Below are positions 2,529 through 39,311 of a stretch of DNA of 39,311 nt, in pieces (position 1 is the stretch's first letter; each line of letters starts with the position of its first letter). The stretch is from a virus. A model generated the notes under the pieces. It had not been told where the DNA came from. It saw only the letters and a program-made list of their open reading frames with translations, and ran no database searches. Both the position numbers and the translations under genes were made by a program. Where the stretch lies: the UHGV virus genome UHGV-0361196; one strand, written 5' to 3'.

Positions 2529-2599
2529 TGACACAGGGCCGGCGGGAGGATAAATGCCTGTCTGCCCGCGCCGGGAAAAAACGCGCGCCGGTGGCGCTG

Positions 2600-2632: not shown

Positions 2633-2694
2633 TACGCGGACGTTCTGATGGGGGCTTCTGTTTCTTCATGCCTGTCATTTGTCTGTTACTTATA

Positions 2695-3887: not shown

Positions 3888-5975
3888 ATGTTTGTATCAG
3901 TTAATGAGCTTGTAGGGTTACCAGGTATGCCGGGAACTGCGCAAGGGGTGCGGTATTCCATAAGGAAACTGGCCTCATCTGAGCATTTCAGGCGCAAACG
4001 TGCGGGTTCAAAAACCATTGAATACAGCATCGACTGCCTCCCTCCGGTTACACAACGGGCGTTACGTGAGCGACATGTAGCTCAACTGATGGCAAGCGCC
4101 CCGCGGGAGATAACTACCCAGCCTCCTGTAAAGCGTGAACGCAAACAAAATGTTGTACAGCCTGTTGAGGCATATCGCGGTTCGCCACAATTGGTAGAAG
4201 AGCGTCTGAATGCGCTTACGGAAAATCAACGTAAAGTTGCAGAAGCGCGCATTGCTCTTGTCTGTGAAGTTCTACGAATTAGCCAGGAGCCGGGATTCAG
4301 TTGTGCCAGCGCTATACGTTTTATTGTGTCGCGGTTAGCGCAGGGTAACCTGGAAGAACGCCTGGAATCTTTGGTCATTACTGCTAATGCCCGTAAAGGA
4401 AAAGAGCGAACTCTGAGCGCAATTACGCTCAAACGTTGGATAGCTGCGTTTAACAAAGCACAGAATGCCGCAGAACGACTGCTGTTACTGGCACCAGGAA
4501 AGCGCGACGAAATAAAACCGGAAGAAATTAGCTGGCTGCCTGAATTTCTGGCGCAGTATCGTCAGGCTAACGGCAGGCCTATGTCTGAAGCCTATGAGGA
4601 TTTTGTCGCTGATTGGCAGCGTCGCCATGCGGACGAACCATACATGCTGGAGGTGATGCCTTCCTATGATGTTGTCCGGTATGCCATGAAAAAACTGCCG
4701 GAAGTGGTGAAACAAAAAGGGCGCGTTACCGGCAGTGAATACCGTCAGCTTGAAGGATTCACCCGCCGCGACTGGACAGCTATGCCGGTGAATTATGTCT
4801 GGATTGGTGACGGTCACGGTATGAAGCTGAAATGTGCACATCCGATCCACGGGCGTCCATTCTCACCGGAAGTTACATTTGTGATCGACGGTGGAACCCG
4901 GTTTGTTGTTGGCTGGAGTCTTGACCTTGCCGAGAACGTGTTCGCCGTTGCCGGTGCGATACAGCACGGCATTCGCAACCACGGAAAACCGTTTCTGTAT
5001 TACTCGGATAATGGTTCTGGTGAAACGGCTGACATACTGGACAAAGAGGTCGTGGGTATTCTGCCCCGCCTGGGGATTAAACACCCTACCGGTATTGCCG
5101 GTAATCCACAGGGGCGCGGCATTATTGAACGCCTGAACCGGACACTGCCGATGCGTATAGCCAGGAGGTATCGCACCTATTTTGGCAAGGGTGCTGACCG
5201 GGAATCGTTGCGTGTACTTAACCGTGATCTGCGTTCAGCGTTTAACGCCATGCAACAGGACAAGCCTCTGAACGACCGCCAGAAAGCTGCAATGCGCGAG
5301 CTACCATCGTGGGCGGAGCTTATTGAGGCTATTCGTGAAGGCGTGGAATGGTACAACAACCGCCCGCATTCTGAGCTGCCAATGAAACCGAACGGGCGGC
5401 ATTACAGCCCGGCAGAGTTCAGAAAAAAACGCCTGGCAGAAGAAGACACCGAAATTGAGTGGCTGAGTGATCTTGAGCTGCGCGACATGTTCCGCCCGAT
5501 GGTGGAACGCCCGGTAAGACGGTGCGAAATTCAGTGGCTGAACAATATTTACTACGCGCCGGAGTTGCGTGACGAACACGGTCGCAAAGTACTTATCAGT
5601 TATGACATTCATGACGCCGAGCGAATTACGGTACGTCGCAAGGACGGCAGCTTTATCTGTGAGGCGATATGGAACGGCAATAAACGCACAGCCTTTGCTG
5701 TCAGTGCTGAATATCACAAACAACAGCAGCGTATTAAAGGAATGCGCAAACGTGCTGAGGAAAAAATTCGTGATGCTGAGGATGAAGGCATTCAGATACT
5801 GGAGCACAAACAGGCTGAACCCTGGCTGGATAATGTTTATCGCCCGGTTGGCAATACGGTAACCATCCAGCAACAGGATTATGAGGAGGATTACGACGAA
5901 GATTATGAACGCGATTTCAGGCTGGGTTTGCAGAAGCTTGTAGCCATACAGGAACAGGATGATCCGCTGGCCTGA
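3888..5975 (+). CDS. DDE transposase, MuA family (divergent from Mu A)
   Basis: 695 aa; N-terminal enhancer-binding-like domain (VNELVGLPGMPGT...KTIEY) and candidate DDE residues in IGDGHG, YYSDNGSG and GIIERLNRTL, aligned by eye to Mu A catalytic core; acidic C-terminus; RBS AAGGTGG. Confidence 0.9.
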   Translation: MFVSVNELVGLPGMPGTAQGVRYSIRKLASSEHFRRKRAGSKTIEYSIDCLPPVTQRALRERHVAQLMASAPREITTQPPVKRERKQNVVQPVEAYRGSPQLVEERLNALTENQRKVAEARIALVCEVLRISQEPGFSCASAIRFIVSRLAQGNLEERLESLVITANARKGKERTLSAITLKRWIAAFNKAQNAAERLLLLAPGKRDEIKPEEISWLPEFLAQYRQANGRPMSEAYEDFVADWQRRHADEPYMLEVMPSYDVVRYAMKKLPEVVKQKGRVTGSEYRQLEGFTRRDWTAMPVNYVWIGDGHGMKLKCAHPIHGRPFSPEVTFVIDGGTRFVVGWSLDLAENVFAVAGAIQHGIRNHGKPFLYYSDNGSGETADILDKEVVGILPRLGIKHPTGIAGNPQGRGIIERLNRTLPMRIARRYRTYFGKGADRESLRVLNRDLRSAFNAMQQDKPLNDRQKAAMRELPSWAELIEAIREGVEWYNNRPHSELPMKPNGRHYSPAEFRKKRLAEEDTEIEWLSDLELRDMFRPMVERPVRRCEIQWLNNIYYAPELRDEHGRKVLISYDIHDAERITVRRKDGSFICEAIWNGNKRTAFAVSAEYHKQQQRIKGMRKRAEEKIRDAEDEGIQILEHKQAEPWLDNVYRPVGNTVTIQQQDYEEDYDEDYERDFRLGLQKLVAIQEQDDPLA

Positions 5976-5982
5976 ATAAAAA

Positions 5983-6006
5983 AACAGTCCGCGGGAACGG
6001 ACTGTT
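5983..6006 (-). terminator. hairpin between A and B, terminator-like on the minus strand
   Basis: 9-bp stem AACAGTCCG / CGGACTGTT with 6-nt loop; a run of 7 A precedes it on the plus strand (U-run after the hairpin on the minus strand); no T-run after it on the plus strand. Confidence 0.35.
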
Positions 6007-6048
6007 AAACGAAGGAAACAAAGCTGATTTGAATAAACGGAGAATAAT

Positions 6049-6981
6049 ATGACCGATATTAATGATGTTTTCAACACGATTAACACACTTATTACTGACG
6101 GCGTAAAAACACAAAGCGCTATTGCTAAAGAAGCGGGGGTGTCGGAGGCCACTCTTTCTGAACTTCGCAAAGGCCGTTACAAAGGTGATACCGAAGGGAT
6201 GCATGACAAATTACTGATGTGGCATCAGAGCTGGCAAAAAAGTCTGGAGTTACCTGGCGCACCACAACTTGTGGAAACACAAACCCTCCGTGATTTGCGC
6301 GAGCTGTTTCAGACCGTGCGTGTTATGGGCTGTATCAGCGTTCTGGTTGGTGTGCCGGGTGTTGGTAAAACCGTTGCGGCCCGTGAATACAGTAACCGTG
6401 TATCTAATACCTGGATGGTGACCCTTTCCCCTGCACACTCAACAGTGACTGAGTGTCTGCTGGAGCTGGCAGACGCGCTGGGAATTGATAATCCGCAAAG
6501 AAATAAAGGCGCATTGACCCGCGCCATTCGCAAAAAACTGAATGGCACACGCGGTCTGGTTATTGTGGATGAAGCTGACCACCTGAGCATGGACGGGCTG
6601 GAGCAGTTACGCGCCATTCAGGATGCAACCGGCGTCGGGATGGTATTGATTGGCAACCCACACCAGTTAGCCAAAGCCACACACCGGGGAACAGATGACC
6701 TTGCACGTTTGTTCAGTCGTTTCGCCAGAACAAAGCAACTACGTAAAGCCAAAAAGGCTGACGTGGTGGCAATTGCGAAAGCCTGGGGCATTGAGGGCGA
6801 AGATGAATTATCACTCATGCAGAGCATCGCGGAAAAACCAGGTGCATTACGTGTATTAACTCATACGCTGAATCAGGCGTGGCTGGCTGCCAGCGGGAAA
6901 GGCGTTCCTCTATCCAAAGGCTACATTAAAGCAGCTTTTAAAGAGGTTTACAGCAACCCGAAATTACTGAACTGGTGGTAA
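6049..6981 (+). CDS. MuB-like AAA+ ATPase transposition target-capture protein
   Basis: 310 aa; Walker A GVPGVGKT and Walker B VIVDEADH; N-terminal HTH-like region; directly after transposase gene as in Mu; RBS GGAGA. Confidence 0.9.
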   Translation: MTDINDVFNTINTLITDGVKTQSAIAKEAGVSEATLSELRKGRYKGDTEGMHDKLLMWHQSWQKSLELPGAPQLVETQTLRDLRELFQTVRVMGCISVLVGVPGVGKTVAAREYSNRVSNTWMVTLSPAHSTVTECLLELADALGIDNPQRNKGALTRAIRKKLNGTRGLVIVDEADHLSMDGLEQLRAIQDATGVGMVLIGNPHQLAKATHRGTDDLARLFSRFARTKQLRKAKKADVVAIAKAWGIEGEDELSLMQSIAEKPGALRVLTHTLNQAWLAASGKGVPLSKGYIKAAFKEVYSNPKLLNWW

Positions 6982-6992
6982 GGGGATAAATA

Positions 6993-7220
6993 ATGATGTC
7001 ACGAAATATAAAAATGGCAACGGATGCGCAGAACTGGTTACAGGCGCGCGGGAGTCATGTAAATGAATCATATCTCGGCGTGGCGCGTCCGATTCTTGAA
7101 ATCACTTACCCACCGGTGGAACTGGTAAAAAACGCGGTCAGAATTATGGAGCATAAGTCCGGGGTGGCCCGTTCTGTATGGACGGCCCGTCTTAATGGTT
7201 GCCAGATTATCTGGAGATAA
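6993..7220 (+). CDS. hypothetical early protein (75 aa), positional equivalent of Mu kil
   Basis: First ORF after B; function not established from sequence. Confidence 0.5.
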
Positions 7221-7222
7221 CG

Positions 7223-7444
7223 ATGTGTATTAAAGCTGAAAAATATATTGAATGGGTTAAACACTGTCAGTGCCACGGGGTGCCGCTGACGACATATAAA
7301 TGCCCAGGATGCGGTGAACAGATTATGACGCAATGCTCACCCGAAAAGGAAATTCGGGATTCCCTGACATGTTGTCCGTGGTGCAGCGCAGTTTTCTTTA
7401 AGCAGGTAAAAGGCGCGAAGGTAAAAGCCAGCGCAGTTATTTAG
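7223..7444 (+). CDS. small zinc-ribbon protein (about 73 aa)
   Basis: Cys pairs CQCHG, CPGCG and CCPWC; RBS GGAGA about 10 nt upstream of ATG 7223; the track ORF from 7199 is an in-frame 5' extension. Confidence 0.5.
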   Translation: MCIKAEKYIEWVKHCQCHGVPLTTYKCPGCGEQIMTQCSPEKEIRDSLTCCPWCSAVFFKQVKGAKVKASAVI

Positions 7445-7464
7445 AATCAATAAGGAGAAGAAAA

Positions 7465-7734
7465 ATGGCAAAGGTTATCTTTGAGTTTACATGGCTGGAA
7501 AGTAGTGACAGTTGCAATGGGCGCAGAGAAGTTCTGGATGCAAAAGCATGTCTTGCAGATATCTCGCCAACGGAAAATACCGGGCCTCATGATTTACTGG
7601 CAAATATAGTCCTGACTATGGCTCCTGAAATTATTAAAAAGGCCAAAGATGAGATGCTGACCACTATGAAGAAAGTGGGTATGGAAGCTGAATGTGATTT
7701 AGTACCACGTCCGGTGAATGTGGTTAAACATTAA
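7465..7734 (+). CDS. hypothetical early protein (89 aa)
   Basis: Strong RBS AAGGAGAAG upstream of ATG; no motif recognised. Confidence 0.55.
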   Translation: MAKVIFEFTWLESSDSCNGRREVLDAKACLADISPTENTGPHDLLANIVLTMAPEIIKKAKDEMLTTMKKVGMEAECDLVPRPVNVVKH

Positions 7735-7754
7735 TTCGCAAAGGAACGCTGACA

Positions 7755-8174
7755 ATGAACGTCAAAATCCGAAATGAAATTCAGGCATTAATTCGAATTA
7801 AAATGCGTAATAACAATCCAGGAGAATTACGCGAGTTTATTTTCACCCGCAAAGTTTATGAGCATGGTGAAACTACTTATCTGATTACATTTGACCATTA
7901 CAGCATTTGTGCGCGTTATTGTGGCGAAAACATCTCTAATGCCATCACGTTTGGCGGTGCGTTTAACGAGGATTTATGGGAATACGTCATGGACCGCGAA
8001 TACATCTGCGCATCAGACCCTGAAGCCCGTGAAATGTGGCAGCGTATCTGGCGCGATTACCGGTTAATGGCAAAAGGCTGGGCGCGCTGCTGTTATTCCT
8101 CGCTTGCCCTGAAAGCGGTTCAGTTATCGCTGCGGCATATTCCGGCATCACTGCACGAGCCTCTGCTGTACTGA
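7755..8174 (+). CDS. hypothetical early protein (139 aa)
   Basis: RBS AAGGAA upstream of ATG; no motif recognised. Confidence 0.55.
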   Translation: MNVKIRNEIQALIRIKMRNNNPGELREFIFTRKVYEHGETTYLITFDHYSICARYCGENISNAITFGGAFNEDLWEYVMDREYICASDPEAREMWQRIWRDYRLMAKGWARCCYSSLALKAVQLSLRHIPASLHEPLLY

Positions 8175-9018: not shown

Positions 9019-9115
9019 TACCACCATTAATATTTAATTAATTCACATTCGTTTAATTATGGCGCGATGCGTCAGGGGACTACTCGCGCCTTAATCAGAA
9101 CCGGAGAGAATGAAA

Positions 9116-9664
9116 ATGAAAGCATGTGCTTATTTTAAACTGAGTGACGAAGCCGCTAACGGTTATACGATTCGCTGGCTAAAAGAGGTTTCTGTTAAGC
9201 GTGGTGAGATTATTGAGTCATTACAGCAATCAGTGAAAGCAATCGGTGTGTCTTTGTCTGGTGACAAAGGGCCTGAGAGGGTTACGCATGTCTGGTTTAG
9301 CTACTTACCACCGGAAGGATGGGGGATTAAATCAAGGACACTTTTCATTGGTGATATTCAGTTATGGGGCGCAATGCCGGATATGACAATACCGGCAGGT
9401 CGTGAGTACGGGAAGCTCATCCGGGACTGTGAAAATCAGCTCGAAAAACACCCGGATTTTCAGCGCTGGCTGTGCAATGAACTTAACGTGGCTACCGACG
9501 TTGACCTGTTTGACATCAGGTCCGTGTGGAAAATGCACCACAGCCGTGACGGATTCAGCATTTTGTTTGCAGTGTACCTTCTGGCTGGCGAAGTGAAGGG
9601 ACCGGTTCCCGCCGAATGCCAGCGCATTAAACATTCTGAATTTGTGGCGCTGACGGAGGAATAA
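9116..9664 (+). CDS. hypothetical early protein (about 182 aa)
   Basis: RBS GGAGAG 9 nt upstream of ATG 9116 (track start 9110 is 2 codons upstream); no motif recognised. Confidence 0.55.
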   Translation: MKACAYFKLSDEAANGYTIRWLKEVSVKRGEIIESLQQSVKAIGVSLSGDKGPERVTHVWFSYLPPEGWGIKSRTLFIGDIQLWGAMPDMTIPAGREYGKLIRDCENQLEKHPDFQRWLCNELNVATDVDLFDIRSVWKMHHSRDGFSILFAVYLLAGEVKGPVPAECQRIKHSEFVALTEE

Positions 9665-9667
9665 CCG

Positions 9668-10207
9668 GTGATTGATGCAAAAGTTCTGAATGGTGTCAGC
9701 ACATTATTACGGGCTTACGGGCGTCTGACCTGCGGGGTTCTGGCTGAAAAAATGAAGATGCTGCCCTCGTCAATGGTTTATTTCCTGCGTGATGCGGTTG
9801 ATGCAGGTGTGCTCACCGAATGCAACGGATTTTATGACGTTCCGCGCCCGCGTCCGACGCTGCCTGTAAGACGAAACGCAACTGAGCAGCCTGCTGTTGA
9901 TGATGCGGTGTGGTGCAACTGGCGTCGCTCATTACCCTGGGTGGAAGGTAATACCATCCCCGCTCTGGCAAAAGAGTTTGCAACGGGCGTGCTGACCTGT
10001 GAATCCGTTCACATCGTTGCAGAAGTGGATAACAGGATGTGCGAACAGGGAATGCCCCGTTTTGTGATGGCTTATATCGATATCCGGCTGGGGCGGTTTA
10101 TTTGCAGTTCAAGCGCCTGGAATATCACCGACCATGTACTGCGTTATCTCATCATTGATTTTTCATCAGCACCGGGTGTGGTGCAGGAGGCTGGTTGTGA
10201 AATTTGA
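9668..10207 (+). CDS. hypothetical early protein (179 aa), possible winged-helix N-terminus
   Basis: GTG start with GGAGG upstream; N-terminal helix-rich segment. Confidence 0.5.
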   Translation: MIDAKVLNGVSTLLRAYGRLTCGVLAEKMKMLPSSMVYFLRDAVDAGVLTECNGFYDVPRPRPTLPVRRNATEQPAVDDAVWCNWRRSLPWVEGNTIPALAKEFATGVLTCESVHIVAEVDNRMCEQGMPRFVMAYIDIRLGRFICSSSAWNITDHVLRYLIIDFSSAPGVVQEAGCEI

Positions 10208-10892
10208 AGACTGGGGTATTGATAAAAGTTGTGGCCGGGACGTCCTGGTGTACAAAAACTGTAGCGTGATTGAAGGAGAAGATGCCTGGCAGGTTCTGGA
10301 TATACTTCGTTCTGCTTTATGCAGAGCTGGCTATGTTACGCCAGCGTCAGTTAATGGCGGAACTGCCACTACCTGTATCAGAAATCAACTTTATAGTTTT
10401 TATACAGCCTACAACCGATGGTTAAAGAATGGGGCAATGGAGACGGGCGATGATGTATTTACCCGGGCTGCCGGATTATGTGCCAATGCTTACGATTATT
10501 TTGAATCAATCGGAGCAGACAGCGAGGCTGCGCTAGAACAATTACATGCGGATTTTGTCGCGAGTGGGCTGGATGAATCCCTGCCATTTAATGTAGATAA
10601 CGTGCACTACCATGATGAATGCCTACATGACAGATGCCACCTGAATTCAGCACGTGTGGCATGGGTTGAAAAACACTGTATTAGTTCTGATTCAGAAATA
10701 ACGGGGAAAAAGACAGTCGGTGAAAATTCGTATTCGTGGCTGGGGAAATTTACCACGGTGAAACAGGAATGCCCGACCTGCGGTAATGAAAACCCTGAAT
10801 ATCTGAAAGAGTGCCCTCATTGTGGCGGGCAGAAATGCAACCACTGCGATATGGGCGATGACACAGCGTGCATGAATTGTGAAGGTGAGTGA
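10197..10892 (+). CDS. Cys-rich protein with C-terminal tandem zinc-ribbon motifs (about 231 aa)
   Basis: Four CxxC motifs in the last 40 aa (CPTCG, CPHCG, CNHCD, CMNCE) plus a His/Cys cluster HYHDECLHDRCH; GTG 10197 preceded by GGAGG at 7 nt is preferred over the overlapping ATG at 10134. Confidence 0.5.
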   Translation: MKFEDWGIDKSCGRDVLVYKNCSVIEGEDAWQVLDILRSALCRAGYVTPASVNGGTATTCIRNQLYSFYTAYNRWLKNGAMETGDDVFTRAAGLCANAYDYFESIGADSEAALEQLHADFVASGLDESLPFNVDNVHYHDECLHDRCHLNSARVAWVEKHCISSDSEITGKKTVGENSYSWLGKFTTVKQECPTCGNENPEYLKECPHCGGQKCNHCDMGDDTACMNCEGE

Positions 10893-10893
10893 T

Positions 10894-11202
10894 ATGAATA
10901 ATGGTGTATTTTCAAAATCAGAAGAGCTTGCCGCCCTGCTGATTGCCGGTGGTTTGCCGAAAAAAGAAGTGCATGACTTTGTGAATTTTGTATATAACCC
11001 GTCTCATGAAAAAGCTATTGATGAGGTCATGGCGTACCGGTTTGGCATTATTGCTGAGTCACTGAGTCCTCACTGGATTATTGAAAATCTCCGCACTATT
11101 GCTGATGGCAAAGATAAATCAGCAGCCGTTGCTGCATTGGATGTGTTACGGCAAATGAGTCTGAAATTTTATCCTGAATTTATTCTGAGGGCCGCAAAAT
11201 GA
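10894..11202 (+). CDS. hypothetical early protein (102 aa)
   Basis: ATG 10894 with AGGTGA upstream, directly after the stop of the upstream gene. Confidence 0.5.
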   Translation: MNNGVFSKSEELAALLIAGGLPKKEVHDFVNFVYNPSHEKAIDEVMAYRFGIIAESLSPHWIIENLRTIADGKDKSAAVAALDVLRQMSLKFYPEFILRAAK

Positions 11203-11501
11203 ACAATGAAGATAAATTTACTCCCCTTAATATTGATAACGTCATGGCTGAAAAAAGGATGCTGGAACGTGTTCGCGCTATCGTTGAATATGGTATTAAG
11301 CATGAACTCACCGCCAGAGAAGTCCGTGACATTATCAACCGCGAAATGAATCGTCTGGAAACAGTAGTGGCACTGCAAAATGAAACAGCCCGCGAGGAGT
11401 ACATCCGCCGCAGGCTGGGGTTATCAGACCAGGATATTGTTACTGACGCTCATGTGTTTGAGGCTTTTGAGATCCGTCAGCATCTGGGCCTTACGAACTG
11501 A
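11199..11501 (+). CDS. hypothetical early protein (100 aa)
   Basis: ATGA start/stop overlap with upstream gene; charged helical product. Confidence 0.5.
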   Translation: MNNEDKFTPLNIDNVMAEKRMLERVRAIVEYGIKHELTAREVRDIINREMNRLETVVALQNETAREEYIRRRLGLSDQDIVTDAHVFEAFEIRQHLGLTN

Positions 11502-11552
11502 TGTGTAAATTCAGGCGGTGTTGCAGCACCGCCTCTTTCCGGAGGTACGATC

Positions 11553-12104
11553 ATGAGCCGCACATCCCTGATTAAATTAATCCATGTCGCCCGTCGGGAG
11601 CTACAACTCGACGACGACACTTACCGCGCCTTTCTGATGCAGAAAACGGGCAAAACCAGTTGCCGCGAGCTGACGGTAACGCAACTGGAACAGGTGCTCG
11701 ATGCCATGAAAGAACGCGGCTTTAAGAAGCTGATTAAACATCCACGTCGCCGCTTTAAGGGGTATGTCACGCCCCGCGAGAAGGTGTATAAAATCTGGCA
11801 GCAGATGGCAGAAGACGGTTTTATTACCGATGGCGGTGATGTGGCGCTGGACAGATATGTTCAACGCCTGACCACGAAACGTAATGGCGGACAGGGTGTT
11901 TCCACGCTGGCGTGGTGTCATGGCGACACCCTGTTGATTGTTCTCGAAACTCTCAAGCAGTGGCATATCCGCTGTATTCGTGAAGCCTTTTCCCGTCACG
12001 GGCTTCCGTTGCCGGTCAGTCCGTCCGGGCGTGAACTGCGCGGCTATGATGCCATGACGGCGGCTTATGCCCATGCCAGAAAGACACGGAGGATGGCACA
12101 ATGA
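11553..12104 (+). CDS. gemA: GemA-like early protein (Mu gp16 family)
   Basis: 183 aa beginning MSRTSLIKLIHVARRELQLDDDTYRAF, which I recognise as the Mu GemA family; sits immediately upstream of mor as in Mu; RBS GGAGG. Confidence 0.75.
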   Translation: MSRTSLIKLIHVARRELQLDDDTYRAFLMQKTGKTSCRELTVTQLEQVLDAMKERGFKKLIKHPRRRFKGYVTPREKVYKIWQQMAEDGFITDGGDVALDRYVQRLTTKRNGGQGVSTLAWCHGDTLLIVLETLKQWHIRCIREAFSRHGLPLPVSPSGRELRGYDAMTAAYAHARKTRRMAQ

Positions 12105-12490
12105 CGGAAGATTTATTTGGTGATTTGCAGGATGACACCATCCTGGCACATCTTGACAATCCCGCAGAGGATGCGTCACGCTTTCCGGCACTGCTGGCGG
12201 AGCTGAACGATTTACTGCGCGGGGAGTTGTCCCGGCTGGGTGTTGATCCTGCCCATTCACTGGAGATTGTTGTGGCTATCTGTAAGCATCTGGGTGGCGG
12301 TCAGGTCTACATTCCACGCGGTCAGGTTCTGGACTCGCTGATTCGGGATTTGCGTATCTGGAATGATTTTAACGGTCGCAACGTCAGCGAACTGACCACC
12401 CGTTATGGTGTCACTTTCAATACGGTTTACAAGGCCATTCGCCGGATGCGACGGCTGAAATACCGCCAGTACCAGCCCTCACTTCTGTAA
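12101..12490 (+). CDS. mor: Mor, middle-operon transcription activator
   Basis: 129 aa, Mor/C family with C-terminal HTH (...NGRNVSELTTRYGVTFNTVYKAIRR); near-identical to Mu Mor as recalled; paralogous to C at 13283..13705. Confidence 0.9.
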   Translation: MTEDLFGDLQDDTILAHLDNPAEDASRFPALLAELNDLLRGELSRLGVDPAHSLEIVVAICKHLGGGQVYIPRGQVLDSLIRDLRIWNDFNGRNVSELTTRYGVTFNTVYKAIRRMRRLKYRQYQPSLL

Positions 12491-12495
12491 ACAGT

Positions 12496-12520
12496 AAAGC
12501 CGGTTAATCCGGCTTTTTTT
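12496..12520 (+). terminator. intrinsic terminator after mor
   Basis: 8-bp stem AAAGCCGG / CCGGCTTT with loop TTAAT, followed by a run of 7 T. Confidence 0.7.
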
Positions 12521-12567
12521 ACGTCCTCAATATCCTGTGATGAATAACCGTACCGGGGGAAATCATC

Positions 12568-12786
12568 ATGGGTAAAGGCTGGAATGCATCCTTTCATCTT
12601 GGCAGACGTGAGCGGCTGCGTCAGGAGGTTTTGCACCGTGTCGCCGGTGGGCCACGGCCTGCGCCCCGCGACTATACCGGTCATGATGGCACCCACGGCA
12701 GTTATTACATGAAAGGCTGGCAGTCAGTTGATATGCCGGAAATTCTTCATCATTGCCTGCTTTACAGGGAGAAACATTATGTCTGA
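12568..12786 (+). CDS. hypothetical protein (72 aa)
   Basis: ORF with GGGGGA upstream; His/Arg-rich; weak call. Confidence 0.4.
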   Translation: MGKGWNASFHLGRRERLRQEVLHRVAGGPRPAPRDYTGHDGTHGSYYMKGWQSVDMPEILHHCLLYREKHYV

Positions 12787-13141
12787 GCGTTCTGCTCGTC
12801 AGTGGCCTGATTTTTTATCGGTGGTATTACTGGCGCTGTTATTGTGGATAAGTCTGTTTTGTGGCTGGCGCGCGCTGATGTTTTGCTGTGCCTCGGTTTT
12901 CAGTGTTGCTTTATGTGTTGCCGCTGATTGTCTGGATGCGCTGATAATGAGCTGCCGGGTGCCTGAACATTTTGCCCGGTTCGTCTGGCCTCTGACCTGG
13001 CTGGGGAGTCTGTCCGGGCTGGGATTAGCCGTGATGGCAACGTCTCAACTGAAAACGGGTCCTGAGCATGTCATCTGGGCGCTGGCCGGATTGCTGACGT
13101 TCTGGCTCTCCTTTCGTTTTCGCGCTCGTCTGTTCGGGTAA
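12779..13141 (+). CDS. multi-pass membrane protein, holin candidate (about 120 aa)
   Basis: ATG 12779 preceded by GGGAGA; three to four hydrophobic segments; lies between mor and C, where Mu carries a small membrane protein. Confidence 0.5.
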   Translation: MSERSARQWPDFLSVVLLALLLWISLFCGWRALMFCCASVFSVALCVAADCLDALIMSCRVPEHFARFVWPLTWLGSLSGLGLAVMATSQLKTGPEHVIWALAGLLTFWLSFRFRARLFG

Positions 13142-13150
13142 AGGGGCACC

Positions 13151-13270
13151 ATGTACAGAAAATTCAGTGATGAATGTTTCGGGCCGTCCACGCTGATGAG
13201 TGCGATAAAAGTGATTGCCCTTGTGGTTCTGATAACCATCAGTGCCGTGGTGTATCTTTCTGTCTGTTAA
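13151..13270 (+). CDS. small single-pass membrane peptide (39 aa), not in ORF track
   Basis: ATG 13151 preceded by AAGGGG at 7 nt; translation MYRKFSDECFGPSTLMSAIKVIALVVLITISAVVYLSVC has one TM helix; fills the gap between flanking genes. Confidence 0.4.
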   Translation: MYRKFSDECFGPSTLMSAIKVIALVVLITISAVVYLSVC

Positions 13271-31201: not shown

Positions 31202-32333
31202 TACCGTCACACTGCGAGCGGATGGCAGGCTGTTTACCGGCTGGACGTCAGTTTCTGTCACCCGCTCCATTGAATCCGTAGCCGGATATTTTGAGCTGGG
31301 GGTGAATGTGCCACCGGGTACAGATTTATCCGGGCTGGCACCGGGGAAGGCGTTCATGCTGGAAATCGGGGGGCAGATTGTCTGCACCGGTTATATCGAT
31401 TCACGGCGACGCCAGATGACCGCTGACAGTATGAAAATCACTGTCGCCGGACGTGACAAAACGGCTGACCTGATTGACTGTGCTGCCGTTTACAGTGGCG
31501 GACAGTGGAAAAACCGCACACTGGAGCAGATTGCGCGTGACCTGTGCGCCCCTTATGGCGTTACCGTTCGCTGGGAGCTTTCCGATAAGGAAAGTTCGGC
31601 AGTTTTTCCCGGCTTCACGCTGGACCATTCAGAAACCGTTTATGAGGCGCTGGTGCGTGCCTCCCGCGCACGCGGTGTACTGATGACCAGCAATGCCGCC
31701 GGAGAGCTGGTATTCAGCCGGGCTGCCAGCACAGCCACTGATGAGCTGGTTCTCGGAGAAAATCTGCTGACACTGGATTTTGAGGAAGACTTCCGCGACC
31801 GGTTCAGCGAATACACCGTCAAGGGGTATGCCCGCGCAAATGGTGCTGAGGGTGATGATATTGATGCGAAAAGTATCGTCTCCCGGAAAGGGACCGCGAC
31901 TGACAGTGATGTGACCCGTTACAGACCGATGATCATCATTGCTGACAGCAAAATTACGGCGAAGGATGCACAGGCCCGCGCCCTGCGTGAGCAACGCCGC
32001 AGACTGGCAAAATCCATCACCTTTGAGGCAGAAATTGACGGATGGACTCGCAAGGACGGGCAACTCTGGATGCCGAACCTGCTGGTCACTATTGATGCCT
32101 CGAAATATGCCATCAAAACCACGGAATTACTGGTCAGCAAAGTCACCCTGATACTGAATGACCAGGACGGGCTGAAAACCCGCGTCAGCCTTGCACCACG
32201 CGAAGGCTTTCTGGTGCCGGTTGAAAGCGACCGTAAAAACAGGAAAGGCGGCGACAGTAACGGCGGTATTGATGCGCTGGTTGAAGATTATTATCGCAGA
32301 CACCCGGAGAAAACGCCGCCATGGAAAGAGTAA
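31194..32333 (+). CDS. P: baseplate hub protein (Mu P-like)
   Basis: 379 aa; overlaps upstream gene. Confidence 0.8.
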
Positions 32334-32914
32334 ATGACTCCGCCATGAACCGCCTGCTAACGCCGCTGATGCGTCGTGTGCGCCTGATGCTTGCGCGCGC
32401 TGTTGTTAACGTGATTAACGACGGGCGAAAGGTTCAGAACCTGCAGGTCGGTCTGCTGGATGATGAGGAATCCGATGAAGTGGAGCGCCTGCAAAATTAC
32501 GGGCATTTCAGCGTTCCCCTGCCGGGCGCAGAGGCGCTGATTGCCTGTGTGGGCGCACAACGTGATCAGGGGATTGCTGTTGTGGTGGAAGACCGCCGCT
32601 ACCGCCCGACAAATCTTGAACCGGGTGATGCAGGCATTTACCACCATGAGGGGCATCGTATCAGGCTGACAAAGGACGGACGCTGCATCATTACCTGTAA
32701 AACGGTCGAGGTTTACGCTGATGAAAGTATGACCGTTGACACACCCAGAACCACGTTTACCGGCGACGTTGAGATCCAGAAAGGTCTGGGCGTTAAAGGT
32801 AAAAGCCAGTTCGACAGCAATATTACTGCCCCGGATGCCATCATCAATGGCAAATCGACGGATAAGCATATCCACCGTGGCGACAGCGGTGGAACCACGG
32901 GGCCAATGCAATGA
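32321..32914 (+). CDS. baseplate central spike / assembly protein V-like
   Basis: 197 aa; C-terminal beta-rich region; assigned by position and size. Confidence 0.7.
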   Translation: MERVNDSAMNRLLTPLMRRVRLMLARAVVNVINDGRKVQNLQVGLLDDEESDEVERLQNYGHFSVPLPGAEALIACVGAQRDQGIAVVVEDRRYRPTNLEPGDAGIYHHEGHRIRLTKDGRCIITCKTVEVYADESMTVDTPRTTFTGDVEIQKGLGVKGKSQFDSNITAPDAIINGKSTDKHIHRGDSGGTTGPMQ

Positions 32915-33348
32915 CCGATTTAGCCATTATCTGGACGAACGGACGCGGCGATATTGCACAGGATGGCATTGATATGCTGACCGACGACAGCCTGACAACC
33001 GATGTGACAATCTCCCTGTTTACAGACCGGCGCGCGCTGGATTCTGACACGCTGCCGGATGGTTCAGATGATCGCCGTGGATGGTGGGGTGACAGTTACC
33101 GCGACCGCCCCATCGGTTCGCGGTTGTGGCTGTTATCACGTGAAAAAGCCACACCGGATACGCTGGAACGCGCCAGAGGGTATGCCGAAGAGGCGCTGGA
33201 ATGGCTGAAAACAGCGGGCCGGGTAAGTGCGATTAACGTCAGAGCGGAACAGTTACATCAGGGCTGGTTATACCTCTACATTGCCCTGACATTACCGGAT
33301 GGTTCCGTTATTCCTTATGAGTTTAAAGCAGCATTTAACGGGGTTTAA
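32911..33348 (+). CDS. baseplate wedge protein (W/gp25-like)
   Basis: 145 aa; ATGA overlap with upstream gene. Confidence 0.7.
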   Translation: MTDLAIIWTNGRGDIAQDGIDMLTDDSLTTDVTISLFTDRRALDSDTLPDGSDDRRGWWGDSYRDRPIGSRLWLLSREKATPDTLERARGYAEEALEWLKTAGRVSAINVRAEQLHQGWLYLYIALTLPDGSVIPYEFKAAFNGV

Positions 33349-34431
33349 ATGGCTTATTCACCACCGACATTATCATCGCTGATTGCCCGTACAGAACAGA
33401 ATATTGAACAGCGCCTGCCGGGTAGCTGGCCTCAGGCCCGTGAAAAAACGCTGAGTGCCATTGCATATGCTCAGGCGGGCCTTGCTGCCGGTTGTCACGA
33501 GCATATTTCATGGGTTGGACGGCAGATTATCCCGTCGACAGCAGATGAAGATGAGTTGCTGGAGCACTGCCGGTTCTGGGGCGTGCGCCGCAAACAGGCG
33601 ACAGCCGCCAGCGGCCCGCTGACTGTCACCACATCGGCAGCGACCACCATTCCTGCCGGTACACGCTGGCAGCGTGCTGATGGTGTGGTTTACAGCCTGG
33701 CTGATGCCATTGTGATTGACCGTGCAGGAACGACGGAAATTACCGTTACCGCACTGGCTGCCGGTGAAGCAGGAAATACCGGTGAGAATACCCTTTTAAC
33801 GTTGATCACCCCGGTTGCCTGTGTTGTTTCCGATGCCATCACTGTAAAAGGGTTTTCCGGTGGGGCTGATATTGAGAGTGCAGCGGAGCTGCTGTCACGG
33901 CTGGAATATCGTGTCCAGTATCCTCCGTTCGGCGGTAATCAGTTTGATTATGTTCGCTGGGCGCGTGAAGTCAGCGGCGTTACCCGTGCCTGGTGTTTTC
34001 CGACATGGAAAGGCGGTGGCACAGTCGGGGTGACGTTTGTTATGGATAACCGGAGCAATATTTTTCCACAACCGGCAGACGTGGAACGCGTGGCGGATTA
34101 TATCGCCGGTCATACTGACCCGATTACCGGTCTGATTGTCGGACAGCCTGACGGTGTAAATGTCACTGTATTTGCGCCAAAGGCAAAGCCGGTAAATCCA
34201 CGGATTTATATATCACCGAAGACAGCCGAACTGAAACAGGCTATTACCCACGCCATTAATACCATGTTTTTTAATGAGGTGACGCCGGGCGGCGCACTTG
34301 CCCCCTCCCGTATTATCCGTGCGGTGGCAGGTGTTACCGGTCTGGATGATTTTGAAGTGCGTTTCCCGACAGAGATCCAGCGTTCGGAGAATACAGAACT
34401 GTTAACACCGGGGACAATTGAATGGCTGTAA
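33349..34431 (+). CDS. baseplate J-like protein
   Basis: 360 aa; assigned by size and position. Confidence 0.8.
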   Translation: MAYSPPTLSSLIARTEQNIEQRLPGSWPQAREKTLSAIAYAQAGLAAGCHEHISWVGRQIIPSTADEDELLEHCRFWGVRRKQATAASGPLTVTTSAATTIPAGTRWQRADGVVYSLADAIVIDRAGTTEITVTALAAGEAGNTGENTLLTLITPVACVVSDAITVKGFSGGADIESAAELLSRLEYRVQYPPFGGNQFDYVRWAREVSGVTRAWCFPTWKGGGTVGVTFVMDNRSNIFPQPADVERVADYIAGHTDPITGLIVGQPDGVNVTVFAPKAKPVNPRIYISPKTAELKQAITHAINTMFFNEVTPGGALAPSRIIRAVAGVTGLDDFEVRFPTEIQRSENTELLTPGTIEWL

Positions 34432-34964
34432 CACCCTATCAGACGGCCTTTCTGCAATTACTGCCGTCAGGGCTTGCCTGGAATAAAAGCCCCGACAGCA
34501 AATTATCTGCGCTGGCGCAGGCCATCAGCGACGTGATTGCCACTGCGGCGGATGATGCGCGGCAAATGCTGCGGGAGCGTTTCCCGTCCACATCCCGCTG
34601 GTATCTGGGTGAGTGGGAATCATTTCTGGGGTTGCCGGACTGTACAAGCGAAAACGGCACCCTGTCCGAACGCCAGCGGGCTGCCGCGAATAAAATGCGT
34701 ATGACCGGCAATCTGAGTCGGCGCTTTTATGAATGGCTGGCTGCGCAGTACGGTTTTACCGTCAGGCTGACGGATTCCACAGAAGGCCAGTGGGTTACGC
34801 AGGTCAATATTTACGGTATTAAAAATTATCGCAACGCAACGGTGCTGGATAATGTTCTGACGCCGTTACGTGTTTATGAATCGGGTGCGCTGGAATGTTT
34901 ACTGGAGAAATATAAACCTGCACATCAGATTTATAAATTTGTTTACCATGACGGAGATAACTAA
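34422..34964 (+). CDS. baseplate/tail protein (P2 gpI-like position)
   Basis: 180 aa; overlaps both neighbours. Confidence 0.7.
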   Translation: MAVTPYQTAFLQLLPSGLAWNKSPDSKLSALAQAISDVIATAADDARQMLRERFPSTSRWYLGEWESFLGLPDCTSENGTLSERQRAAANKMRMTGNLSRRFYEWLAAQYGFTVRLTDSTEGQWVTQVNIYGIKNYRNATVLDNVLTPLRVYESGALECLLEKYKPAHQIYKFVYHDGDN

Positions 34965-37528
34965 TGTTTTATATTGATAACGACAGCGGCGTAACCGTCA
35001 TGCCGCCCGTATCCGCCCAGCGTAGTGCTATCGTTCGCTGGTTTTCAGAAGGTGACGGGAATAATGTTATCACATGGCCCGGCATGGACTGGTTTAATAT
35101 TGTGCAGGCGGAGTTATTAAACACGCTGGAAGAAGCCGGTATTCAACCGGATAAAACAAAATTAAACCAGCTTGCACTGTCCATTAAAGCCATTATGGGC
35201 AATAACGCGCTGCTGATAAAAAATAACCTCAGCGAAATAAAAACGGCCGGGGCATCAGCACAGCGCACAGCACGTGAAAATCTGGGTATTTATGATGCCA
35301 GTGTGAGCAAAAAGGGGCTGGTTCAGCTAAGCAGTGCAACAAACAGCACCAGTGAAAAGCTGGCAGCAACGCCAAAAGCGGTCAAGGCAGCAAATGACAA
35401 CGCAAATTCACGTCTGGCGAAAAATCAGAACGGTGCAGATATCCAGGATAAATCAGCTTTTCTGGACAATGTTGGCGTTACCAGCCTGACGTTTATGAAA
35501 AACAATGGCGAAATGCCGCCTGATGCTGATCTGAATACATTTGGTCCCGTTAAGGCTTATCTGGGGATCTGGTCTAAAGCTACCTCAACTAACGCAACAC
35601 TGGAGAAAAATTTTCCGGAAGATAATGCTGTCGGTGTGCTTGAGGTTTTTGCTGCCGGCAATTTTGCAGGCACGCAACGCTTTATCACGAGAGACGGCAA
35701 TGTATACATGCGTAAACTCGCCAATAAGTGGAATGGTACTGATGGTCCATGGGGCGTATGGCGTCACACTCAATCAGCTACCCGCCCTTTGAGTACGACT
35801 ATAGACCTGAATACGCTTGGAGCCGCCGAACATCTTGGTTTATGGCGTAACAGTAGCTCGGCTATAGCTTCATATGAACGCAATTATCCAGAGGAAGGCG
35901 GCTTTGCTCAGGGGACGCTTGAGATCCTCGAAGGCGGGAATTATGGAAGAACACAACGTTATACCACTCGCCGTGGAAATATGTATGTCCGCTGCCTTGC
36001 GGCAAGCTGGGATGCATCAAATCCGCAGTGGGAACCGTGGTTAAGAGTCGGTCATCAGTCAGAGAGTCGTTATTACGACGGGGATTTGAATGATGTGACT
36101 TCACCAGGTATTTACAGCGTTACAGGTAAAGCGACCAACGGTCCAGTACTGGACGGAAACGGCGTGACTGTACTCGGCATTCTGGAAGTGTTGAGGCGGT
36201 TTGATGGTGTTAATGTATGGCAGCGTTATACAACTGCCGGAACAGGTACAACCCTTAAAGGCCGCACCTTTGAGCGCGTCTTTACCGGCAGCTCATGGAG
36301 CGAATGGCGGGAAGTCTACACCTCGTATTCACTTCCCCTGAATCTGGGTATCGGCGGTGCTGTGGCAAAGCTCACCAGCCTGGACTGGCAGACCCACGAC
36401 TTTGTGCCGGGCAGTCTGATAACCGTTCGGCTTGATAACATGACCAACATTCCCAACGGTATGGACTGGGGCGTCATTGATGGCAACCTGATAAACATCG
36501 CAGTTGGTCCGAGTGATGATTCCGGTACGGGGCGCTCAATGCATGTATGGCGCAGCACTGTAAGTAAAGCGAACTACCGCTTTTTTATGGTGCGTATTTC
36601 AGGAAATCCGGGACGCCGCACGATTACAGCAAGACGAGTACCAATCATTGACGAAGCCCAGACATGGGGCGCGAAACAGACATTCAGTGCTGGCCTTTCT
36701 GGTGAACTGTCCGGCAATGCGGCGACAGCAACAAAGCTGAAAACAGCCCGTAAAATTAATAACGTTTCGTTTGATGGAACATCAGATATTAACCTGACGC
36801 CGAAAAATATTGGTGCATTTGCTTCAGGAAAAACAGGAGACACCGTTGCGAATGATAAAGCCGTTGGATGGAACTGGAGTAGCGGAGCCTATAACGCAAC
36901 TATTGGTGGGGCATCAACGTTAATTCTTCATTTTAATATCGGGGAAGGAAGTTGTCCCGCCGCCCAGTTTCGCGTTAATTATAAGAACGGTGGTATTTTT
37001 TATCGTTCTGCTCGTGACGGTTACGGATTCGAGGCTGACTGGTCTGAGTTTTATACCACAACGCGAAAACCTACAGCGGGAGATGTCGGTGCACTGCCGT
37101 TATCTGGTGGTCAATTGAATGGTGCTCTGGGTATAGGAACATCCAGTGCTCTTGGCGGTAATTCGATTGTTTTGGGTGATAATGACACGGGCTTTAAACA
37201 AAATGGTGATGGTAATCTGGATGTTTATGCTAATAGCGTCCATGTTATGCGCTTTGTCTCCGGAAGCGTTCAAAGTAATAAAACCATAAATATTACGGGG
37301 CGTGTTAATCCCTCGGATTACGGTAACTTTGATTCCCGCTATGTGAGAGATATCAGACTTGGCACACGTGTTGTCCAGACCATGCAGAAAGGGGTGATGT
37401 ATGAGAAAGCAGGGCACGTAATTACCGGGCTTGGTATTGTCGGTGAAGTCGATGGTGATGACCCCGCAGTATTCAGACCAATACAAAAATACATCAATGG
37501 CACATGGTATAACGTTGCGCAGGTGTAA
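34964..37528 (+). CDS. tail fibre protein with three tandem knob-like modules
   Basis: 854 aa; N-terminal region typical of Mu S / P2 H-type fibres (...SSATNSTSEKLAATPKAVKAANDNA...); three tandem modules of about 85 aa at aa 188-452; C-terminal Gly-rich region. Confidence 0.85.
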   Translation: MFYIDNDSGVTVMPPVSAQRSAIVRWFSEGDGNNVITWPGMDWFNIVQAELLNTLEEAGIQPDKTKLNQLALSIKAIMGNNALLIKNNLSEIKTAGASAQRTARENLGIYDASVSKKGLVQLSSATNSTSEKLAATPKAVKAANDNANSRLAKNQNGADIQDKSAFLDNVGVTSLTFMKNNGEMPPDADLNTFGPVKAYLGIWSKATSTNATLEKNFPEDNAVGVLEVFAAGNFAGTQRFITRDGNVYMRKLANKWNGTDGPWGVWRHTQSATRPLSTTIDLNTLGAAEHLGLWRNSSSAIASYERNYPEEGGFAQGTLEILEGGNYGRTQRYTTRRGNMYVRCLAASWDASNPQWEPWLRVGHQSESRYYDGDLNDVTSPGIYSVTGKATNGPVLDGNGVTVLGILEVLRRFDGVNVWQRYTTAGTGTTLKGRTFERVFTGSSWSEWREVYTSYSLPLNLGIGGAVAKLTSLDWQTHDFVPGSLITVRLDNMTNIPNGMDWGVIDGNLINIAVGPSDDSGTGRSMHVWRSTVSKANYRFFMVRISGNPGRRTITARRVPIIDEAQTWGAKQTFSAGLSGELSGNAATATKLKTARKINNVSFDGTSDINLTPKNIGAFASGKTGDTVANDKAVGWNWSSGAYNATIGGASTLILHFNIGEGSCPAAQFRVNYKNGGIFYRSARDGYGFEADWSEFYTTTRKPTAGDVGALPLSGGQLNGALGIGTSSALGGNSIVLGDNDTGFKQNGDGNLDVYANSVHVMRFVSGSVQSNKTINITGRVNPSDYGNFDSRYVRDIRLGTRVVQTMQKGVMYEKAGHVITGLGIVGEVDGDDPAVFRPIQKYINGTWYNVAQV
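35525..36319. repeat. three tandem, diverged protein-level repeats in the tail fibre gene
   Basis: Modules beginning LNTFGPV, LNTLGAA and LNDVTSP share the pattern G-x-LE[IV]-x5-8-Q-R-[FY]-x-T-x4-8-R-x7-8-W-x-x-W. Confidence 0.5.
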
Positions 37529-37531
37529 ATT

Positions 37532-38059
37532 ATGCAGCATTTAAAAAACATTAAGTCAGGTAATCCAAAAACAAAAGAACAATATCAGCTAACAAAGAAT
37601 TTTGATGTTATCTGGTTATGGTCCGAAGACGGAAAAAACTGGTATGAGGAAGTAAGTAATTTTCAGCCAGACACAATAAAGATTGTTTACGATGAAAATA
37701 ATATTATTGTCGCCATCACCAGAGATGCTTCAACGCTCAACCCTGAAGGTTTTAGCGTTGTCGAGGTTCCTGATATTACCGCCAACCGACGTGCAGACGA
37801 CTCAGGTAAATGGATGTTTAAGGATGGTGCCGTGATTAAGCGGATTTATACGGCGGACGAACAGCAGCAACTGACAGAATTACAGAAGGCAACTTTGCTT
37901 TCCGAAGCTGAATCCGTGATTTTGCCGCTGGAACGCGCTGTCAGGCTGAATATGGCAACAGATGAGGAGCACAGCCGACTGGAGGCATGGGAACGCTACA
38001 GCGCTCTGGTCAGCCGCGTGGATACGGCAAAGCCAGAATGGCCACAAAAACCAGAGTAA
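37532..38059 (+). CDS. U: tail fibre assembly chaperone (Mu U / lambda Tfa-like)
   Basis: 175 aa directly after the fibre gene; C-terminal segment [32 protein letters not shown] typical of Tfa proteins. Confidence 0.8.
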
Positions 38060-38064
38060 AAATT

Positions 38065-38092
38065 AAGGCCCGATAGCGGGCCTTCTCTTATT
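38065..38092. terminator. hairpin terminator between convergent tail-fibre-assembly sequences
   Basis: 8-bp stem AAGGCCCG / CGGGCCTT with loop ATAG, followed by CTCTTATTC. Confidence 0.55.
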
Positions 38093-38291
38093 CTGGTTGT
38101 TCGGAAAACGTTACTGGCAGGCTGGAGGGGTCTGTATATTCGACCTTCTGCGCATAGAGCATCCACTCGGTTAATTTTTGTTTATTCTCGTCGGAAATGA
38201 TACCCAGCCGTAGCGAACGCATATAGAAAACGACGATCGAATCAATTGAATCGATCGGTAATACAGATCGATTATGCCCCAATAACCACAC
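38088..38291 (-). pseudogene. relic of an inverted second tail-fibre-assembly gene (G-segment remnant)
   Basis: Minus-strand 67-aa ORF whose last 30 aa (SDENKQKLTEWMLYAQKVEYTDPSSLPVTFSEQPE) mirror the Tfa C-terminus pattern D-E-x4-L-x2-W-x2-Y-x3-V-x3-D; convergent with the intact chaperone gene; no variable fibre part or invertase follows. Confidence 0.35.
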
Positions 38292-38320
38292 TCAACCCAT
38301 GATGTTTTTTAAGATAGTGG
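38231..38320 (+). promoter_or_regulatory. mom operon promoter region with Dam-methylation (GATC) cluster
   Basis: Three GATC sites within 35 bp (38235..38238, 38253..38256, 38266..38269), then T6 tract 38305..38310 and candidate -10 TAAGAT; matches the known Mu mom promoter architecture; RBS AAAGGAGG before com. Confidence 0.6.
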
Positions 38321-38343
38321 CGAATTGATGCAAAGGAGGTGAG

Positions 38344-38532
38344 ATGAAATCAATTCGCTGTAAAAACTGCAACAAACTGTTATTTAAGGCGGATTCCTTT
38401 GTTCACATTGAAATCAGGTGTCCGCGTTGCAAACGTCACATCATAATGCTGAATGCCTGCGAGCATCCCACGGAGAAACATTGTGGGAAAAGAGAAAAAA
38501 TCACGCATTCTGACGAAACCGTGCGTTATTGA
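38344..38532 (+). CDS. com: Com, zinc-finger translational activator of mom
   Basis: 62 aa with CxxC...CxxC (CKNCN, CPRCK); near-identical to Mu Com as recalled. Confidence 0.9.
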
Positions 38533-39190
38533 GTATGAAGGCCAGATTGTTGGCTATGGTTCAAAGGAGCTGCGCGTTGAAACCATATCCTGCTGGCTGG
38601 CCCGCACAATTATTCAGACAAAGCACTATTCCCGCCGTTTTGTGAATAACTCTTACCTCCACCTGGGAGTATTCAGCGGACGCGATCTGGTTGGCGTTCT
38701 CCAGTGGGGATATGCCCTTAACCCCAACTCAGGTCGTCGTGTCGTGCTTGAAACGGATAACCGGGGCTATATGGAGTTGAATCGCATGTGGCTACACGAC
38801 GACATGCCCCGCAACTCTGAATCACGGGCCATCAGCTACGCGCTGAAAGTTATCAGATTACTGTATCCGTCAGTGGAGTGGGTTCAGTCATTTGCTGACG
38901 AACGCTGCGGATGCGCAGGCGTTGTGTATCAGGCGTCGAATTTTGATTTTATTGGCAGCCATGAAAGCACGTTCTACGAGCTGGATGGTGAGTGGTATCA
39001 CGAGATAACGATGAACGCAATTAAGCGCGGTGGACAACGAGGCGTGTATTTACGGGCTAATAAAGAGCGTGCCGTGGTGCACAAATTTAATCAGTATCGC
39101 TACATCAGGTTCCTGAACAAGCGAGCAAGGAAGCGGCTAAATACTAAGCTATTCAGGGTTCAGCCATACCCTAAAAGCACTCCCGATTAG
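38453..39190 (+). CDS. mom: Mom, DNA modification protein (adenine modification, anti-restriction)
   Basis: ORF overlapping the 3' end of com in another frame, as in Mu; matches Mu Mom as recalled; the true start is probably downstream of 38453, near the com stop. Confidence 0.85.
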
Positions 39191-39268
39191 TATCAAATAA
39201 TTTTTCGTTGTGCCGTTTTGGGTGGTATCAAAAAAAATTCAAAACGGTATCAAATGATTTTGCGCGCT
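39186..39268. repeat. right end (attR-like) with three putative transposase-binding repeats
   Basis: GTATCAAA at 39190..39197, 39225..39232 and 39247..39254, the reverse complement of the left-end TTTGATAC motif; the outermost 14-mer AAATCATTTGATAC is shared by both ends in inverted orientation. Confidence 0.6.
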
Positions 39269-39278
39269 TTATACTGAT

Positions 39279-39311
39279 GTTGTTGTTCCTGCTACTGCTA
39301 CTGCTACTGCT
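39279..39311. repeat. short microsatellite in right flank
   Basis: (GTT)3 at 39279..39287 followed by (GCTACT)3 at 39291..39308, running to the window edge. Confidence 0.5.

Follow-up and report, generated by a model that had tools for sequence, protein, structure and literature searches.

Probable scar of a lost G-segment inversion system in a natural Mu-type prophage with a chimeric Mu-P2 tail fibre

Phage Mu alternates two tail fibres by inversion of its G segment, and a Fis-dependent enhancer lies inside the invertase gene gin. Non-defective laboratory deletion and gin mutants of Mu with a frozen G segment, described in the literature of the 1970s and 1980s, stay viable without gin and the G/beta boundary and make one fixed fibre type, and the viability of gin-less Mu has long been known. 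These mutants keep Mu S or S', whereas the phage described here occurs naturally, at five chromosomal sites, and has had its fibre tip replaced. The mosaicism of the fibre genes of Mu, P1 and P2 is also well known. Every close relative so far described, namely Mu, D108, SfMu and the Yersinia phages vB_YpM_3/5/6/23, keeps the G segment and gin (PMC4406740, PMC10434027). The present locus shares with these phages the backbone, the order S, U, terminator, (U'), ..., com, mom and the control region. The G segment system is full in all of them, whereas the locus lacks gixL, gixR, S'v and most of gin and U' and has a variable S part of P2 type. The other close system is the H-G module of P2-family phages, in which the distal fibre is 96-99% identical to the one found here and of which some variants have the same layout of fibre, chaperone, hairpin and U' stub. 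Unlike in P2-family phages, the P2 module of the present locus is grafted on a Mu S N-terminus and a Mu baseplate, and its stub is fused to gin/mom sequence, where P2-like stubs are followed by P2-type tail genes.

The window, by which is meant the whole stretch of DNA analysed (39,311 nucleotides, UHGV virus genome UHGV-0361196), contains one element with the following extent.

2691-39271, plus strand: complete Mu-type prophage of 36,581 bp, both ends inside the window

The termini of the prophage read 5'-TATAGAGAGG...GCGCGCTTTA-3' and are flanked by a 4-bp duplication, TACT (2687-2690 and 39272-39275). Alignment of the window to the prophages of Escherichia coli strains 1290 and S6 was confined to 2691-39271/2, with differing flanks, and the gene set of the prophage is complete in the RefSeq annotation of both strains. 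Mu-type late genes in Mu order, the Mor and C activators and com-mom at the right end are all present, as in Muvirus, the Mu-type transposable myophages. Nucleotide identity to Mu is 97.7% from about position 6988 on and 97.7% over about 76% of 2691-27600, and the late genes are approximately 97-98% identical to those of Mu. The transposition module (2687-2740, 3888-6981 and 39230-39275) is not that of Mu: the left end, A and B correspond to those of Yersinia phages vB_YpM_5/6, amino acid identity is only 22% between transposase A and MuA and 44% between the B protein and MuB, and a domain search found Mu-transpos_C, HTH_Tnp_Mu_1 and Phage-MuB_C in A/B. The prophage ends in TA...TA where Mu has TG...CA, AAATCATTTGATAC is repeated 11-24 nt inward from both ends, and target duplications in this lineage are of 4 bp (TACT, GTGA, TTAA) as compared with 5 bp in Mu. 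Two of these three duplications were verified against empty sites (strains 1290 and S6), and no account of transposable phages making 4-bp duplications came out of a literature search. The host flanks of the window (1-2690 and 39276-39311) resemble another mobile element rather than core chromosome, with ORFs of 453 aa (557-1918) and 187 aa (1965-2528, methyltransferase-like by eye) on the left and a short tandem repeat of CTGCTA type on the right.

The features of the right end of the prophage that concern the fibre and the com-mom operon are the following.

34964-37528, plus strand: single tail-fibre gene, 854 aa, a chimera of Mu S and P2-family gpH
35323-35442, plus strand: putative left crossover zone, 120 bp common to Mu S and P2-family H
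37532-38059, plus strand: intact tail-fibre assembly chaperone (U / P2 gpG type, 175 aa)
38065-38084, no strand assigned: bidirectional intrinsic terminator hairpin between U and the U' relic
38088-38213, minus strand: U' relic, last 41 codons and stop; a pseudogene without start and N-terminal 136 codons
38213-38215, no strand assigned: deletion/fusion junction; U' homology stops and gin homology starts at base 38214
38214-38249, plus strand: gin relic, last 11 codons (RTHIENDDRIN) and stop; tblastn match to Mu Gin 183-194 of 194, 91.7%
38235-38269, no strand assigned: three mom operator Dam (GATC) sites, starting at 38235, 38253 and 38266
38250-38343, plus strand: mom/com regulatory region, kept intact, with operator, C-activator site, T6 spacer, -10 element TAAGAT and com ribosome-binding site
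38344-38532, plus strand: com, 62-aa zinc-ribbon translational activator of mom (Pfam Zn_ribbon_Com; Mu annotation)
38453-39190, plus strand: mom, DNA modification enzyme (Pfam Mom, E=2.2e-74)

Positions 38060-38343 sit between the intact chaperone gene and com/mom and contain a 126-base stub of U' joined to the final 36 bases of gin. The first 28 positions (38060-38087) are 100% identical to Mu. The hairpin at 38065-38084 was found by a terminator scan as an 8-bp stem with 6 G-C pairs and a T-run on both strands, and its RNA folds have energies of -25.4 and -24.5 kcal/mol (z = -6.1 and -6.9). The U' relic is 92.9% identical to Mu U' positions 137-178 (tblastn, E=1.8e-20), matches positions 89-131 of 131 of the Pfam Caudo_TAP profile (E=1.6e-9) and, as DNA, is 94.2% identical to Mu 33503-33657 (E=5e-61). 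By these sequence measures the match to U' is far beyond chance. In two RefSeq genomes with identical sequence, PGAP marks exactly these 126 nt as a pseudogene ('missing N-terminus'). An earlier, sequence-only reading of this region had taken the minus-strand fragment for a relic of an inverted fibre-chaperone gene, an idea that would fall if the fragment had no homology to fibre-assembly proteins; the tblastn, Pfam and DNA matches identify it as a true 3' relic of that gene. The same reading called the upstream chaperone gene intact, in agreement with the Caudo_TAP match of 37532-38059 (E=3.4e-33) and its 90.3% amino acid identity to Mu U.

The relic lies within a longer minus-strand frame, 38088-38291, which is open for 67 codons from a GTG start, and it could be asked whether this frame still works as a small gene, for a mini-chaperone or a regulator, read leftward from the mom promoter region. 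Only the C-terminal 41 residues and the stop are chaperone-derived, corresponding to the same last third of the Caudo_TAP profile, and PGAP treats the sequence as a pseudogene. The first 25 codons (38214-38291) are not fibre-assembly sequence; they run antisense through the gin tail and into the mom operator, regulatory DNA that is conserved with Mu. The GTG has no clear ribosome-binding site, and an upstream ATG is followed immediately by a stop. A functional gene here is accordingly considered very improbable.

Homology to U' and homology to gin meet at a single point. The blastn block ends fall at 38214 from both sides, and three-way alignments with Mu, SE11 and JCKP02, the latter two being gin-positive E. 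coli prophages, show one shared C at the junction, a 1-bp microhomology. Because the parents share this one base only, the junction is classed as illegitimate, neither site-specific nor homologous. Deletion mediated by Gin was considered separately and rejected: both endpoints are away from gix sites, and the junction bears no resemblance to gix. The stretch under 38214-38249 is annotated as invertase in Mu, D108, SfMu and others; the remnant itself is not expressible as an invertase, and both the U' and the gin stubs appear to be debris with no function of their own. Short-read assemblers can be misled by the inverted repeats that border invertible segments, and a collapse across the inverted U/U' repeat might in principle have produced the join as an assembly artefact. 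The join connects non-repeated sequences, U' codon 137 and gin codon 183, and the identical 284 bp recur in several independent assemblies of varied source and insertion site as well as in two complete chromosomes of RefSeq, which leaves an artefact with a negligible probability.

Relative to Mu, the missing sequence can be stated to the base. Positions 37493-38214 align with Mu 32937-33657 and positions 38214-39174 with Mu 35638-36598 (97.9% identical), and from these two flanking alignments it follows that Mu 33658-35637 (AF083977), 1980 bp, is absent. With it went U' codons 1-136, S'v (Mu 34067-35024), gixR (35025) and about 94% of gin, counted from the start of the gene at Mu 35092; the 5' 546 nt are gone and 36 nt remain. 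The Fis-dependent enhancer was lost too. According to literature cited in PMC3378877, the Fis-bound recombinational enhancer is in the 5' part of the invertase gene, and the 5' 546 nt of gin in which it is located are deleted in the window. Alignment to the Mu G segment and gin, one of the checks proposed with the sequence-only reading, thus mapped relic, junction and gin tail exactly, and placed the missing Mu sequence just where that reading had supposed the loss to be, between the relic and the com promoter, except that the relic first abuts the 36 nt of gin.

The remaining parts of an invertible tail-fibre segment of the Gin/Din type, the kind to which Mu G, P1 C and e14 P belong, were searched for across the window: an adjoining serine invertase gene, two inverted crossover sites of 26 bp (gix/hix type, one of them within the fibre gene), and a second fibre C-terminal exon with its own full chaperone gene in inverted orientation. 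In a tblastn search of the 39.3-kb window with Mu Gin, only 38214-38249 was matched, with nothing else below E=2.7; no invertase open reading frame is present, as had been claimed from the letters alone, although the 3' remnant of gin had then gone unnoticed. The gix/hix consensus had no match with up to 3 mismatches anywhere in the window, and scores against gixL, hixL and the consensus reached 16-17 of 26 at best, no higher than the means of shuffled sequence (16.7-17.6), so that the search for residual gix-like sites that had been suggested returned nothing above background. No second fibre end was found on the minus strand, all fibre-like tblastn matches being on the plus strand and inside the single fibre gene, and a second full chaperone gene in inverted orientation is absent from the window, where 41 U' codons are all that is found of one. 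The possibility of an invertase just outside the window, which had been raised as a potential refutation, is answered by the prophage ends at 2691 and 39271, which lie inside it; in the complete genomes 1290 and S6 no invertase was found near the element, and its flanks there are host genes.

Din-family invertases cross-complement, and inversion might therefore persist through a host-encoded Pin-type enzyme acting on diverged sites. Pin-type genes are carried by many E. coli strains (for example PMC12529663). Given that no gix/hix-like site exceeds the shuffled level and that there is neither an inverted fibre end nor a full chaperone gene to switch to, persistent inversion is regarded as extremely unlikely.

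The left side of the former G segment has also changed. Homology to Mu extends over 34901-35442 at 92.6% and ends at a point corresponding to Mu 31936, and homology to P2-like elements begins at 35323, so the two overlap in the 120-bp block 35323-35442, which by its sequence is the obvious candidate for a crossover zone. Codons 1-160 of the fibre correspond to the constant part of Mu S, and the distal 695 of 854 codons to P2-family H. Base-level alignment showed that Mu-type S homology stops 30 bp before gixL and that the position of gixL is diverged. The P2-like prophage of KC-Dl-1 matches 35443-37531 at 96.2-99.4% identity, phages vB_YpM_50/22 match 35323-38043 at 93-94%, and the fibre has Pfam matches to Phage_fiber_2 and gp37_C. 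The loss of gixL and the P2-type origin of most of the fibre were not remarked in the sequence-only reading. That reading had correctly found no alternative fibre end and had proposed loss by deletion; deletion is supported at junction 38214, but a single simple deletion within a Mu G segment is not required, because gixL and the variable part of S were replaced by a P2-family segment. As a separate observation, a stretch of the fibre gene within the P2-type part (36814-37093, 93 residues, on the expressed strand) resembles the fibre of Mu G(-), with 85% amino acid and 81% DNA identity to Mu S' residues 154-246.

Taken together, positions 38060-38343 are very probably the scar of the lost G-segment inversion system of a Mu-type phage. 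U' has been cut to its last 126 nt and joined non-homologously to the last 36 nt of gin, and with this join the 5' three-quarters of U', S'v, gixR and all catalytic sequence of Gin are gone. At the other end, the distal part of a P2-family fibre gene has taken the place of gixL and the variable part of S, with the crossover in the shared 120-bp block. The late operon would now make one fibre, which docks to the baseplate by its Mu N-terminus, has a shaft and tip of P2 type and is folded with the help of the chaperone encoded next to it, and the late transcript would end at the retained bidirectional terminator. As there is no invertase, no site and no second fibre end, host range should be fixed, with a single adsorption specificity; the 'locked host range' of this phage is deduced from gene content.

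Two histories could have led to this arrangement. In the first, an internal 1980-bp deletion in a resident G segment would have been accompanied by a separate homologous swap of the variable part of the fibre. In the second, a P2-like prophage with its own U' stub would have donated distal H, G and the stub in one step. The 120 bp common to S and H would have fixed the left end of the exchange, and the right end would have been closed where the stub was joined illegitimately to the 3' end of gin. This import would replace Mu 31937-35637 at once and would give the same locked fibre by a different route. It draws on the existence of suitable donors: MS20654, PhiR44_2 and several more elements carry H, G and a truncated convergent chaperone pseudogene, and their homology passes 38214 by 15-16 bp, their stubs being that much longer than the stub in the window. 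The chance that an independent deletion in the 534-bp U' would end so near was roughly estimated at 6%. Against the P2-like elements with which the fibre segment shares 96-99% identity, the chaperone gene and stub reach only 85-92%, which suggests a different, older history for the part from U to the stub, and the closest fibre donors, for example KC-Dl-1, have no stub at all. The chaperone gene taken singly is 87-92% identical to P2-like copies, again below the fibre part. The chaperone gene and stub together are equally close or slightly closer to Mu-like copies than to P2-like ones, and the stub is 94.5% identical to that of SE11 as compared with 91-92% for P2-like copies; segment by segment, the identities to Mu, SE11, JCKP02, vB_YpM_5 and two P2-like elements agree within a few nucleotides. 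No DNA relative of the chaperone gene and relic above 91.4% was found outside this lineage, a value too low to point to a donor or to decide between the two histories. On balance the deletion with a separate swap is the likelier of the two, and one-step import is held to be possible but rather unlikely.

In MS20654 (L002, 7766-7908) and PhiR44_2 (L003) the convergent U' stub lies directly 3' of the chaperone gene, and the tail genes gpU, tape measure, tube and sheath form an inverted block on the other strand. The arrangement suggests an invertible fibre segment in the past of these P2-like elements too, either their own or one with which they recombined. A literature search for U' remnants in P2-like phages found nothing useful.

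On the right of the junction, the control region of mom is preserved. Positions 38214-38350 differ from Mu 35638-35774 at two bases (38217 and 38247), and 38275-38350 are identical. The start of mom transcription was placed at about 38322 based upon the TAAGAT -10 element (38310-38315); PMC4461284 contains coordinates neither for the OxyR footprint nor for the mom start. Relative to this inferred start, the GATC sites lie at about -87, -69 and -56, and the Mu literature cited in PMC3378877 assigns such Dam sites a role in the mom operator. Fis footprints at mom extend from -107 to -84 and from -133 to -115 (PMC3378877), and the junction is estimated to lie at about -108. With the start so placed, the three Dam sites and the Fis footprint from -107 to -84 are retained and the upstream footprint from -133 to -115 is removed. 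The Dam/OxyR/C-controlled promoter region of mom is intact in sequence, and since it is untouched from about -107 on, regulation of com/mom should be near normal.

The exact 284-bp segment adjoins five different right-hand flanks.

Flank 1: the window, shared with L010 and L011
Flank 2: strain 1290 (L004, CP184007), ydcO split by the element
Flank 3: strain S6 (L005, CP107134), element between ydcV and patD
Flank 4: assembly L008, suf operon adjoining
Flank 5: Logan contig L009, cytochrome bd gene adjoining

The insertions in 1290 and S6 have clean target duplications, each established against the empty site in the other genome. The presence of the same scar at five insertion sites indicates that it predates at least five integration events and that the gin-less phage stayed mobile after the loss; the phage would still have been able to transpose or lysogenise. 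The insertions in 1290 and S6 are about 10 kb apart and in opposite orientation in an otherwise identical ydc region; chance, a preference for targets in this region or local hopping in a common ancestor could account for this. Compared with the prophages of 1290 and S6, to which it is otherwise 99.8% identical, the prophage in the window is mosaic in its early semi-essential region (9099-13152), parts of which are only 93-97.6% identical or unaligned, and the lineage has therefore recombined since the scar was formed.

The scar is rare. It was found in 2 of 5426 complete E. coli genomes, and in the same set these two gin-less copies were the only ones to cover at least 80% of 34422-39190; no intermediates with a P2-type fibre and an intact U'-S'-gin were found there. 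The exact junction had no match among IMG/VR viral contigs, GTDB species representatives or JGI metagenome contigs. Among the matches listed, 27 other E. coli prophages have a com-mom region of Mu type (identity of at least 96.8%), and all of them carry a recombinase gene where the window has the scar; gin is retained in every other Mu-type relative examined. RM11911 (L017) and RIVM_C019217 (L018) resemble the window in that fibre and chaperone are followed by com-mom (6991-7831) with no recombinase. In this class com-mom is 88-89% identical and the match starts at com, the baseplate and fibre genes are different, and no gin or U' stubs were noted, unlike in the window; because of these differences the class offers no evidence of secondary loss. 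This second, more distant class of E. coli Mu-like prophages, found in about 48 genomes, also has truncated fibre pseudogenes and no invertase adjoining com, so the absence of gin is not unusual among Mu-like elements generally. What is specific to the window is a visible scar in a true Mu-type genome.

Insofar as the stub recurs in different phages, it might have been retained for a purpose. About 130-140 bp of U' and the bidirectional hairpin are kept in two independent lineages, the P2-like prophages and the Mu-type phage of the window, and this block is unusually conserved, at 92-95%, across Mu, P1, P7, D6 and P2-like phages. A role as a terminator/insulator unit or as a recombination handle for fibre swaps is conceivable, at a low probability. 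As an insulator, the unit would stop the strong late fibre transcript from entering the toxic com-mom operon about 240 bp away. On this unlikely reading, the gin-less lineage would show by a natural example that Mu can do without its host-range switch when it has a broad-range fibre of P2 type.

The preferred reading, a scar of the lost inversion system, invokes no new mechanism and describes an ordinary case of module loss and exchange. It adds a further clear example of the traffic in fibre modules between Mu-type and P2-type phages, and the fixed-fibre Mu-type phage is a natural, previously undescribed example of its kind. It also gives a view at base resolution of the natural loss of a bet-hedging device, the invertible host-range segment of Mu. 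A phage without the switch that keeps spreading may serve as a natural comparator for the value of G inversion outside the laboratory.
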